In this document: one piece after another, positions 59,525-64,000 of the stretch
Layout of the letters: each line of letters starts with the position of its first letter
Position numbering within the stretch: the first letter of the stretch is position 1
NCBI GenBank assembly: GCA_963727775.1
Contig: CAVSHB010000001.1
Location: forward strand, 1,510,199 to 1,574,198
Source: an uncultured Nitrospiraceae bacterium
Lineage (GTDB): Bacteria > Nitrospirota > Thermodesulfovibrionia > Thermodesulfovibrionales > SM23-35
Direction: 5' to 3'
DNA: 64,000 nt
Made by a program: the position numbers and the translations under genes
The notes under the pieces: generated by a model
Seen by the model: the letters and a program-made list of their open reading frames with translations, nothing else
What the model was told of the DNA's origin: nothing
Databases searched by the model: none

Positions 59525-61147
59525 GAGTCTGTCCATAAATTATAACTATAGGAAACAAAAAGAGAAATGGTAAAATTGCAGAGGAAATAAGAAACGTGGA
59601 GGAAGCCTTGAAACTGTTGAAGGAACTGAAACTGCAATTTGAAAAAGAGCTGTGGGCCTTGAATCCGGAACTGGCTGTAATGGACACGATACTGAACCAG
59701 CATCCTGAGATATACGAAATAGTGAAGGATGACATAACCAAGGGCAAAGAAAGCAGCAGTCTCGGCAGGCAGGACATGCCGACAGTGGAACAGATAGTGA
59801 GGGCGGCGATATACAAAGAGATGAAAAACCTGACCTATCGTGAGCTTGAGCATGCGCAACATGATTCCAGGATGTGCGCGGTATTTATCAAACTTGACGA
59901 CCGGAAGCCGTTTTCCTTTGAGGCGTATCAGAAATACATATCCCGGATAAGCGGAGAAGCGCTGGATAAGGTGATGGTAGCGATCAATAAAACCGCAATA
60001 GGCGAAGGGCTTGAAGACGGCAAAAGCATACGGACCGACGGGACCGTAATAGAGACAAATATACATTATCCGACAAACAACTCATTGATATGGGACTGCA
60101 TCAAAACCATAGATCGACTATTGAAAAAACTGAAGGCCAGTGGAGTGGAGATCAAGGTACGGAGCTACAAGAAACAGGCTAAGAAGAACCATTACAAGAT
60201 CAATAACACCAAAGCTAAAGAGGAACGGGAAGAGGAATTCAAGAAACAACTGAAGCTGCTTCGCAGCAGCATCAACCAGGCAGAGAGGGCATTAACAGCA
60301 GAACTGCCCAAAACGATAGAAGGCTGGATAATTGCAGAGGCGGCAAGGAAAGAACTGAAAGACGTGTTGCCGAAGGCGGAGAAAGTATATGACATCTCCC
60401 GGCGACATGAGATCCTTGGGGAGGCTGTGCCGAACGAAGAGAAGATATTTTCGATCTATGAAGACCATACGGACATCATAGTGAAGGGGAGGAGAGAAGT
60501 AGAATTTGGACATAAGATAAACCTTGCGACAGGCCGTAGCAATCTGATACTTGATTGCAAGGTGCTGGAGGGCAACCCTGCCGACGCAACACTTTATGGG
60601 GCAGTGATAGATCGTCTCAAGGATAACTATAAGATAATCCCCCGTGATATGGTGACTGACGGCGGCTATGCCTCAAAGGACAATGCGAGGATAGCGCATG
60701 GGAAAGGGATCGTCAACATCGTCTTCAATAAGATAAAAGGGTCGCTTAAGAACATCGTCAGAAGCGCGAACATGGAAACGCGGCTGAAGAAATGGCGCAG
60801 CGGCATTGAAGCAGTTATCTCGAATCTGAAAAGGGGTTTTGAATTGTACCGGTGCGAATGGAAGACAAGGGCGCGATTTGATGCCAAGGTGTACTGGAAC
60901 GTGATTGTTTACAACATTCGTGTGATGACAGGAGCGCTCCTTGCGAAGATGCAAACGCAGATGCAATGAAGACAGGCGAAAGGCAGATCACAAAAGGAGC
61001 ATAAAGGGATATCCACGTCCGAAATCATGAAAAATATGACGACAGCATGCTTTTTGAAGTATAAGAACCACAATCCGAACAGGTGCCGGCACTGCCGGGA
61101 CAGTTTTCTGTTCGTAAATTAGGAAACGGTAGTTTATGGACAGACTC
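59525..61147 (+). mobile_element. IS element (IS5-like / ISNCY DDE)
   Basis: Perfect IR GAGTCTGTCCATAAA / TTTATGGACAGACTC flanked by TAATTA on both sides. Confidence 0.88.
59596..60969 (+). CDS. DDE transposase (IS5-like / ISNCY)
   Basis: RTDGTVIETNIHYPT, KIFSIYE.HT, EFGHK, DGGY, RSGIEAVISNLKR. Confidence 0.88.
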   Translation: MEEALKLLKELKLQFEKELWALNPELAVMDTILNQHPEIYEIVKDDITKGKESSSLGRQDMPTVEQIVRAAIYKEMKNLTYRELEHAQHDSRMCAVFIKLDDRKPFSFEAYQKYISRISGEALDKVMVAINKTAIGEGLEDGKSIRTDGTVIETNIHYPTNNSLIWDCIKTIDRLLKKLKASGVEIKVRSYKKQAKKNHYKINNTKAKEEREEEFKKQLKLLRSSINQAERALTAELPKTIEGWIIAEAARKELKDVLPKAEKVYDISRRHEILGEAVPNEEKIFSIYEDHTDIIVKGRREVEFGHKINLATGRSNLILDCKVLEGNPADATLYGAVIDRLKDNYKIIPRDMVTDGGYASKDNARIAHGKGIVNIVFNKIKGSLKNIVRSANMETRLKKWRSGIEAVISNLKRGFELYRCEWKTRARFDAKVYWNVIVYNIRVMTGALLAKMQTQMQ

Positions 61148-61467
61148 TAATTAGTGACATATGTAACTTTGCCTTCCTTGCTCTGGGCCAATTCCTGAAG
61201 TCTCGTCATTATATTAACTATGTGAAATGCATTGGCTATACTGTCATAGCTTAGCGGCTGCATTTCGATAGGATATACCCAGCAGTCCATCATGTCTCCC
61301 AATAATATCACTTCTTTTATTGAATCATCTCTAATCAACTATTCCATAAATTGCTCGAACATCCTGGCTTCATTTTTGTAGAACCAATCATAACAGCCTT
61401 GTGAATTTCCCAAACTCAACCCTGTACTCATATGACTGTCACTGACAAAGACTCTCTTAATAGACAT
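61148..61467 (-). pseudogene. Calcineurin-like metallophosphoesterase, N-terminal remnant
   Basis: MSIKRVFVSDSH..LLGDMMDCW; in-frame TAG at 61339-61341; cut by the IS where the GNH motif would be. Confidence 0.7.
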
Positions 61468-61639
61468 GCCATTTCTATTTCGAATATACGCTTAAATACC
61501 GTCAGCCCTGTTCCTGTCGCCAAAACTGCAGAGAGGCTGCCACAGAATGGCAGGGGAAAAGATAGCAGATATCTTGATACCGCGAATATGTTTGATCCGC
61601 CCCGGAATACGCACAGTGTGTTTGTCGCTAACGAATAAG

Positions 61640-61670
61640 CGTTATTCCGCTGCGAAGTTGCGGAATAACG
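61640..61670. repeat. 11-bp perfect hairpin, probably part of the IS91-like element end
   Basis: CGTTATTCCGC-N9-GCGGAATAACG. Confidence 0.6.
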
Positions 61671-61699
61671 TGTGGAGAACATCCTATAGTGCCTCCTGT

Positions 61700-62057
61700 C
61701 AAGACAAAAAACATCTGGGAAATTTACTTAAATATCAATGATCGTTATCCGAGATCTTGCAAGAACAATAGTCTGCCGTACGTCCATCTGGACGATAGTA
61801 TTTTTTCTCGACGCACTCTCTCACTACAATCGAACTTGATCTCTGATAGTTACGTTTATCCGACGTGTTCCGCATTGAGCGTACCGCCCATCATCCCTTA
61901 TCCAGACTCTCAAGTTCAGTGAGAGGCCCTATATTGTTCTCCACGAGGTCTTTCGCCTCAACTAAGCCAAGCTCGGGCTCTCTGCGTCTTGTTTTTGGGG
62001 CCTCCAGAACAGAAACGGCTTCACAGGAAGCCCTCAGTTAAGTTCTTTTGATGTGGC
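61700..62057 (-). ncRNA. Putative bridge/seek RNA of IS110 (ends not determined)
   Basis: Contains GGCTTAGTT-hairpin-GTGGAGAAC matching both insertion flanks. Confidence 0.75.
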
Positions 62058-63350
62058 CTATATTTGGATATCCCCCTTATTGAGATATTTTGGATCGAAT
62101 AGCTCCTTCTTTTTCATCAAGGTCCATGCGATAACCAAAAGCTTTGCGGCTATCTTTACACGCATCTTCGTACTAATTCCCTTTTCCCTCTGCCGACCTC
62201 TGAGCTTATTGGTGTAATAAATCGTAAAATCTTTGTTATGAAAGGAAGCGATTAGAGCAGCCTGATATAAGGCGTAGCGAAGATCGGCTTTCCCTTGTTT
62301 GGAGATTACCGGCGTTACGCTGTTTGAAGTCTTTCCGCTTCGCTCCGCGCAAAGGTCGAAACCAGCCATCTTCAGGACCTGCTTGTCGCTCGTAAAGCGA
62401 AAGGGATTACCTATCGCCCCGAGAACCTTTGATGAGACATCCGGCCCAAAGCCAGGGATACTCAAAAGGCATGGGTATTCCGGAAACTGTAGGCACATAT
62501 CCTCTATTTTATCTTCCACCTCTTTGATCGTCTCTCGCACCTGATTAAGCATGGATACCATCACCTTCGCCTCGAACGGCACTGCGTCTCCTACATAACA
62601 TCCAATGGAATCAGGGGCTATCTGCCAGATCGCCTGCAGCAGCTTTTGTTGGGCAATATTCATTCTGCTGAGGGCAACGTGCCTGCGGAATTCATCGAAT
62701 TCCATCCCGGCGATCACCGAGGGATTAAGACAGCGGCCGACTACGGCCAGGCTCACCGCTGGGCCGAAGTGGCGGTCCATTTCAGGGAAATACTGGGCCA
62801 GAAGCTGATTGCGGATGCGAACCCGGAGGCCATGTTCCTCTTTCTTGAGTCGTCTCTTTAAGGAAAGGAGATTCCTCAGATCCCGCATCTTCGGATCCGG
62901 ATATTCATAGAATAGGAATTTCCCTTGGGAAATGAGGTCGGCTACGTTAGAGGAATCCTTGGTGTCGTGCTTATCCCATCTGCCATCCAGAAGCGTGCGG
63001 TTGTTTTTTACTGCCGTCCCCGCTACCAAAACAACCATATGCCCACACTTAATAAGATGCTCTCCCAGAGGCTTATGGTAATTGGCTGTGGGCTCAAGAC
63101 CAAAGACCACCTTTGTAAGGTCATGCTGGACCTTAAGCGCTTCTGTCAGCGTCAGCAGTTTCTCGAATCCTTCAATCGTGTTGTCAAAGATCACTCCCTT
63201 GTGCAGCGTTTTGCCGTTAGCCGTGCCGAAAAAGGCATTGTGCTTCTCTTTAGCCACGTCGATGCCGATGATCAAATACTGATCGGAGCCACGTATCTCT
63301 TTCTTGACTTGTCGAAACTCCCTAAGTCTGATACCATCTACTTGTTCCAT
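62058..63350 (-). CDS. IS110-family DEDD recombinase/transposase
   Basis: GIDVAK, LEPT, KHDTKDS, SIPGFG, RSG, SKQG..LR. Confidence 0.93.
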   Translation of the reverse strand: MEQVDGIRLREFRQVKKEIRGSDQYLIIGIDVAKEKHNAFFGTANGKTLHKGVIFDNTIEGFEKLLTLTEALKVQHDLTKVVFGLEPTANYHKPLGEHLIKCGHMVVLVAGTAVKNNRTLLDGRWDKHDTKDSSNVADLISQGKFLFYEYPDPKMRDLRNLLSLKRRLKKEEHGLRVRIRNQLLAQYFPEMDRHFGPAVSLAVVGRCLNPSVIAGMEFDEFRRHVALSRMNIAQQKLLQAIWQIAPDSIGCYVGDAVPFEAKVMVSMLNQVRETIKEVEDKIEDMCLQFPEYPCLLSIPGFGPDVSSKVLGAIGNPFRFTSDKQVLKMAGFDLCAERSGKTSNSVTPVISKQGKADLRYALYQAALIASFHNKDFTIYYTNKLRGRQREKGISTKMRVKIAAKLLVIAWTLMKKKELFDPKYLNKGDIQI

Positions 63351-63748
63351 AGAAACCTCCTGTCAAAAGAATTTTGTTTCTCCATAAACTTATTCTTACA
63401 GGAGGTTTCTATTTTTTAATAGCTATAAAATTAGTCTCCCTTATGATTGAATGGGGAAGTTTGATCTTATGCCATTTCTATATATAACTAAGCCGGTGCG
63501 CCGGATATGGGGATTCGATTAATTCTCCCGGAACTTTTTCTATCGAAGAGGATATGGTTTATGGAGCATCTGTCTTATTTTGATCTGCATGAGATCATCC
63601 TGATACGAAAATTGAGGCTGAGATTGCGACCATTGCAGCTGGATAGTATCCCAAGGTCTGATTTCAGACAATAGGGGAGCATAGCGAAACAGGATGCTGT
63701 TTTCGCAGGTTGATAGAGCTATGATTTTTGAGCTATCGCCGGTGTGCA

Positions 63749-64000
63749 TCAGTATCGATCCGGAGGGCTATTGCACCTGGAAGGGAGCAAATACTCAATC
63801 GTGACCATTGTGCCCTTCTTGCAAACCGGGCAGGTATTGATATCGATACCGTAGATTCTGAGCAACTGATCCTGCCAGGTCTCTGATTTTTCTTCTTCTT
63901 CTTCTTTTGTTTCGGTTTTACAACTGCCGATGAGCTTACGGCATAGCGCGATGTTGTCTTTACGCTTTCTGTTTGCGAGGAGTCCGAAGTGCCTGATTTA
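63749..64000 (-). pseudogene. C-terminus of an IS91-family (Y2) transposase
   Basis: Reads IRHFGLLANR..CPVCKKGTM..SPP; the in-frame codon at the window edge (63998-64000) is TAA, so possibly disrupted. Confidence 0.75.

Follow-up and report, generated by a model that had tools for sequence, protein, structure and literature searches.

Near one end of the window (the whole 64,000-nucleotide stretch of DNA analysed) lies an IS110-family element whose non-coding end repeats short pieces of its own flanks. Are these pieces the guides of a bridge RNA and, if so, what are they aimed at? We put at roughly 0.88 the probability that the element works like IS621, with a bridge RNA encoded downstream of the gene, and that it belongs to a clade programmed to the ends of IS91-family elements.

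The element and its recombinase

The element proper occupies 61681..63486 on the minus strand, 1806 bp between two GT cores, the left copy at 63487..63488 and the right copy at 61679..61680 (both minus strand). Its ends were set by the other copies in the genome and by the conserved ends of relatives. As in the IS110 family, a dinucleotide core is found at both ends, without a longer target duplication.

The recombinase gene (62058..63350, minus strand) encodes 430 aminoacids, the length that the earlier note had given. The protein matches PF01548 (79.9 bits) and PF02371 (62 bits) in Pfam, a RuvC-like DEDD domain and a C-terminal Tnp domain, and NF033542 in NCBIfam with 168.8 bits, against a cut-off of 140. 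When aligned to IS621 (8wt6_A), its residues D31, E86, D129, D132 and S338 coincide with the catalytic residues of IS621, as listed in the accessible part of PMC11208158. Judged by its sequence, this is an intact recombinase of the DEDD/Ser type and of the IS110 family. The non-coding ends of the element are unequal, with 377 nt downstream of the gene versus 136 nt upstream.

A hairpin with 27-bp arms (63349..63412, minus strand; fold z -5.70) covers the ribosome-binding site and start codon of the recombinase. Its arms are visible in most of the relatives shown, and it would damp translation of the gene.

Guides of the target loop

On the minus strand, GGCTTAGTT at 61960-61968 is a 9-nt match to the left flank (63486-63494), and GTGGAGAAC at 61936-61944 is a 9-nt match to the reverse complement of the right flank (61672-61680). 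The hairpin GAGG-N7-CCTC (61945..61959, minus strand) separates them. All three motifs stand where the earlier note had placed them, and both matches have the length it gave. As a measure of the guides themselves, 9 nt does not hold. The left target guide is GGCTTA-GT (61961..61968, minus strand), and the T that closes the left match belongs to the loop, where it changes whatever the target (T66/A11/G7/C2 in relatives). The right target guide (61936..61944, minus strand) is near absolute at +1 to +3 in relatives and partial at +4/+5, so that only about 3-5 bases past the core carry signal; since +6/+7 are at background there, the 9-nt right match in this copy is partly luck. Two U bases 5' of the left target guide could wobble-pair with the CC common to both known targets.

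Relatives were taken from 160 loci fetched from contigs, the best 80 of 196 from genomes and the best 80 of 574 from metagenomes, to which 9 further loci were added (169 in total). Named records among those fetched are mostly Nitrospirota and delta-proteobacteria. A target loop was parsed in 140 of the 169 loci, while 29 gave none with the pattern used. In viral contigs the same pattern was found at 120 loci, 0 of them with a recombinase, and these matches are therefore attributed to chance. The contigs of RNA runs X19 and X20 hold relatives, none at 99% or above.

After rows without a clean junction and duplicates were dropped, the guides of the target loop were seen to covary with the flanks. 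On the left, 85 distinct guide-flank pairs give 534 matches, compared with a shuffle mean of 346 and a maximum of 396 (2000 shuffles). On the right, 86 pairs give 383 matches (shuffle mean 283, maximum 318). The shuffle test overstates the case, because the relatives cannot count as independent, and about four in five right pairs (68 of the 86) fall in one guide class. More telling are the nine right-guide classes, each of which agrees with its own flank; one of the two pairs of the GTA class differs at +3. By position, from +1 to +7, the right guide matches at 1.0, 0.99, 0.95, 0.56, 0.41, 0.38 and 0.16; the last two values compare with 0.38 and 0.17 in shuffled pairs. The central proposal of the earlier note, that this is the target loop of an IS110 bridge RNA and that guide and target are a natural pair, is thus strongly supported by covariation across relatives.

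One sub-lineage (L029, L043, L110, L128, L130, L132, L134, L136) has a shifted left junction, reading GA or AT and not GT, and an altered donor loop.

The predicted bridge RNA and its donor loop

The predicted bridge RNA spans 61810..61988 on the minus strand, with an outer stem around the target loop, followed by the donor loop. A 188-nt stretch folds with a z of -3.09, and 2 of 200 shuffles were as stable. In the consensus of 37 sequences, 14 of the 27 pairs have two-sided changes.

The donor loop was missed by the earlier note, and both this loop and the covariation of its handshake base are additions to it. The left donor guide GGAT (61893..61896, minus strand) matches the last bases of the right end. 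Its triplet is the same as the element's final three bases in 108/108 loci (not de-duplicated), through variants G, T, C and A in 86, 17, 3 and 2 of them. The right donor guide GTAAC (61849-61853) is followed by the handshake base T (61848), the two together occupying 61848..61853 on the minus strand. In 69 of 70 distinct cases (G-C 62, T-A 7, one miss), this handshake base is the complement of target base -1, a pairing described for IS621 in PMC11208158. Covariation with the element ends is found in the donor loop as well, with the right donor guide being conserved and not covarying.

Between the stop codon and the bridge RNA there is a conserved hairpin with a U-rich tail (62017-62032, minus strand), possibly a terminator or a processing site.

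Chance matches and the length of the core

Could the matches be chance, or copied flank sequence with no guiding role? In favour of this, an Rfam search gave no match up to E 1, and the whole 377-nt non-coding end folds no better than shuffles (z -1.40). Against it, 200,000 base shuffles of that end produced the left 9-mer 271 times and both 9-mers jointly 0 times, covariation is position-specific in two loops, and the scaffold is conserved with two-sided pair changes. We regard such an origin as exceedingly improbable. Hardly more credible is the sole unusual claim of the earlier note, by which the element is as we describe it but with a 3-nt GTT core. It is true that GTT is present at both junctions and in both guides of this copy. 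Across relatives, however, the base after GT at the right junction is not constant (C 71, T 7, A 6, G 2); in 86/86 pairs it is the base that the guide has. For the left junction, T follows the core in 85/85 pairs, a circular count since the pattern demanded T; it was replaced by a count anchored on the guide and not on the element end, with 79 distinct cases anchored and no anchor in 25 loci, where TATA comes next in 70/79. In the 64 loci where both ends were read, the left third base is T in 59 and the right third base is non-T in 61. In copy E, a paralog in the same genome, the left junction reads GTT and the right one GTC. Furthermore, the handshake base pairs with the base adjoining GT, as with the 2-nt core of IS621, and its complementarity to target base -1 fixes the 2-nt register independently. 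The core is the 2-nt GT; at the left junction the third T is the first base of the element, and at the right junction it is target base +1.

Copies in the genome

The genome holds six close copies, A (this one) to F. Copies B and C have the same flanks as A. Copy D has the same guides at another site, just after a stop codon and outside any host element; it confirms the left target, with 8 bases in common, and the right target over its first three bases. Copy E is 89% identical and frameshifted near codon 86; its guides are AATAAGC-GT and GAATG-AC, and it sits in exactly that target. Copy F is truncated; it has the guide GGTTTA, and its right flank differs from the guide there by one base. The comparison of flanks between copies, which the earlier note had put forward as a check, calls for caution: three of the four full copies (A, B and C) lie on the same host-element end, and only D is clearly separate.

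A composite unit bounded by IS110 cores was ruled out, the flanks shared by A, B and C being host-element sequence.

The target lies in another mobile element

Both flanks belong to another mobile element, which the earlier note overlooked. The target is a motif that lies 47 nt inward from the transposase-distal end of an element with an integrase and an IS91-family transposase. On the left, the non-coding 3' end of this host (63489..63748, minus strand, 260 nt) ends in the left target, preceded by a small GC-rich repeat. Upstream of it is a C-terminal piece of the host transposase (63749..63997, minus strand), severed from its front by the insertion of a recombinase trio. On the right, the 47-nt host tip (61632..61678, minus strand) begins with the right target, which is followed by a terminal hairpin with 11-bp perfect arms (61640-61670).

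In B and C, the transposase front and the integrase lie beyond the trio of tyrosine recombinases. The front, on the copy at C3, matches PF04986 and PF14319, and NF033538 with 363.7 bits; as in the IS91 family, it is a Y2 HUH transposase with a zinc domain. The trio has opposite orientations in B and C, between 31-bp inverted repeats (G000 C1:340431-343843 and C3:215054-218465; L001, L002). We take such trios to be what is called RIT. Contig C1 ends at the 31-bp trio repeat, at the window end (64000).

Among 30 loci with integrase and Y2 elements, the same tip is found about 530 nt past the matched part in 9, and a similar motif at the integrase-proximal end in 22. Four host copies in genome G362 diverge directly after the tip. 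The empty site that the earlier note had reconstructed is real: in 12/12 uninterrupted host ends of other genomes, picked for carrying the tip, GT is at the expected distance from it, 7 exactly and 5 with one extra base. The closest of these ends matches 28 of 30 bases on the left, and one uninterrupted end is also a loose contig end in run X1. The distal tip of the host is marked by the hairpin, and GTTC/GTCC is found near the proximal end, in line with PMC13181058, but conservation runs three bases past this tetranucleotide. They may correspond to the sub-terminal palindromes and GTTC-type tetranucleotide of the IS91 family.

Two host tips set head to head, with no transposase, form free palindromes of about 47 nt at G000 C1:630.6k, C3:359.7k, C3:224.0k and C1:291.7-293.5k, and also in G406, G012, G400 and G412. 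The one at C3:224.0k has 11 extra bases, identical to the right target. They are possibly by-products of rolling-circle transposition.

Two other kinds of target were considered. A REP family was ruled out: the hairpin arm has 10 matches in the genome, one of them chance-like, and the arm is the host tip. As for an integron attC, considered for its likeness to the target, the 13 loci in viral contigs that matched the motif had the look of repeated elements at their upstream ends.

Guide variants and preference for the host

GGYTTA guides are present in 7 of the 140 parsed loci, 4 of them from this genome, and the E-type guide in 2 of the 140. All four outside loci with GGYTTA guides sit in host ends, with 79-91% protein identity: L015, L095 and L100 in the integrase-proximal end, and L169, read by eye beyond the 140 parsed loci, in the transposase-distal end. 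In a protein tree of 94 sequences (L169 and F left out), the GGYTTA loci and E form one clade with a support of 0.877, nested among elements with a CAAC-GT-CCC target. Paralog E and L097 sit in free palindromes of two host tips.

The E-type guide occurs in L013 and L097, on separate branches of the recombinase tree, which suggests that the RNA region was exchanged between elements. A relative with another guide (L007/L020) sits in a palindrome resembling the end of the ISNCY element that adjoins this locus (window 59596-61160), and is possibly a second case of aiming at the ends of another element.

In this genome a number of host ends are unoccupied, and so are two left matches of 6 out of 6. 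Three integrase and IS91-like elements of another subfamily (G000 C1:20.5-23.5k, C2:571-573.9k and C3:339.4-342k) have a full match to the left guide at their upstream end, differ at +3 and are also unoccupied. An occupied host end of this type was found in none of 400 other genomes of the phylum, and in 401 genomes the junction pattern was found in this genome only.

What do these occurrences say about the host? The guides may simply aim at a short sequence, the link to IS91 ends being incidental or due to one old inherited insertion. Copy D lies outside the host element, which implies targeting by sequence rather than by element; moreover, the GGYTTA loci are one clade, and A, B and C are on one host end. 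On the other hand, the outside loci are in two different host ends, so that at least two insertions are needed; guide variants track end variants, and paralog E and L097 occupy a second site in the same host tip. On this balance, an incidental link appears unlikely.

Somewhat less doubtful, though still a tentative proposal, is a lineage specialised on integrase and IS91-family elements. It would have guides for both ends and the terminal hairpin, insert so as to leave the 47-nt tip whole, ride with its host (A, B and C), and be able to flip the host interior when both ends are occupied (L100). In L100:1-2286 the IS110 joins the integrase-proximal host end to the transposase-distal tip, the arrangement expected from an inversion of the host interior. 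In support of riding with the host, A, B and C are at three places with the same host end and insert, and diverge directly after the tip. Against it, the transposase of the host is interrupted, there are empty host ends elsewhere in the genome, and C has three substitutions in common with D that are absent from A and B, which fits separate insertions or gene conversion.

Possible junction promoter and proposed mechanism

Close to the right end there is a -35 box, TTGACA (61697..61702, minus strand), with an inferred function. It lies 17 nt from a TTATAT -10 box (63482-63487) only when the element is a circle, and a promoter scan of the linear element gave 0 sites. Among the sequencing runs, all of them contigs, no joint was listed. 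Consensus boxes at 15-17 nt spacing are found in 73 parsed loci, the -35 box itself being part of the search pattern.

By analogy with IS621, the following cycle may be proposed. The element would excise as a circle joined at the GT core, building an active promoter from which the RNA would be expressed. The donor loop of the RNA would bind the circle junction and its target loop GGCTTA-GT-TCT(CC), and the DEDD/Ser recombinase would exchange strands at GT through the chemistry assumed for IS621. In the sub-lineage programmed to a motif near both ends of the integrase and IS91-family element, the insertion is nested in another mobile element, here 47 nt from the transposase-distal tip.

Comparison with known systems

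The mechanism is already known from IS621, and a readable target loop is no surprise to a specialist. IS91-family ends as a class of IS110 target are probably undescribed, but unsurprising. Among the titles and abstracts found, none has an IS110 element aimed at IS91-family ends; subscription papers for the most part and ISfinder lay outside this scope, and supplements may list the clade. IS91 and ISCR have 0 occurrences in the main text of PMC11187229, and for the target motif the places shown from the supplements of PMC11208160 are barcodes or unrelated alignments.

The value of the locus is in a natural system that is fully mapped, with a GT-core bridge RNA downstream of the gene and both loops and the handshake base read from natural covariation. 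It offers many natural guide variants on one scaffold, suited to reprogramming. IS91-family elements are known for moving neighbouring genes. Should the nested element prove to move along with its host, or to rearrange it, RNA-guided and rolling-circle transposition would be linked.

IS621 and ISCro4 (IS622), according to the accessible parts of Durrant 2024 (PMC11208160) and Hiraizumi 2024 (PMC11208158), have in common with this element the DEDD and Ser residues, a 2-nt core, a target loop followed by a donor loop as internal loops, the handshake base, a junction promoter (a predicted one here) and a very short sub-terminal repeat. In contrast, the RNA here is downstream of the gene and theirs upstream, and the core is GT instead of CT. 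Compared with IS621, the protein is about 100 aminoacids longer (about 26 at the N-terminal and about 74 between the two domains), the left donor guide shares no more than the G with the core, and sequence likeness is weak (E 1e-15).

With the IS1111 group, as the consulted sections of Siddiquee 2024 (PMC11187229) present it, the element shares a long non-coding region downstream of the gene. In those elements, sub-terminal inverted repeats of 11-13 bp stand 7 and 3 bp away from the ends; a repeat scan of this element found none of that size. Across 73 loci the sub-terminal repeats measure 3-7 bp, this copy having 5, and stand 4 and 2 bp away from the core; in this respect the element departs from the IS1111 group despite its downstream RNA. 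According to the same sections, a 3' non-coding region is found in some of the elements that lack such repeats, a description that fits this element.

ISPpu10 (bioRxiv 10.64898/2026.03.19.712850, in the part available) likewise has a target adjoining a stem-loop. Here such a structure may be dispensable; copy D lies outside the host context.

Finally, IS4321/IS5075, which target Tn21-family terminal repeats, and the IS1111-attC elements are also IS110-family elements aimed at a conserved site of another mobile element. The host here differs from that of IS4321/IS5075 in being an integrase and IS91-family (Y2 HUH) element, and it is struck near both ends, at two positions.
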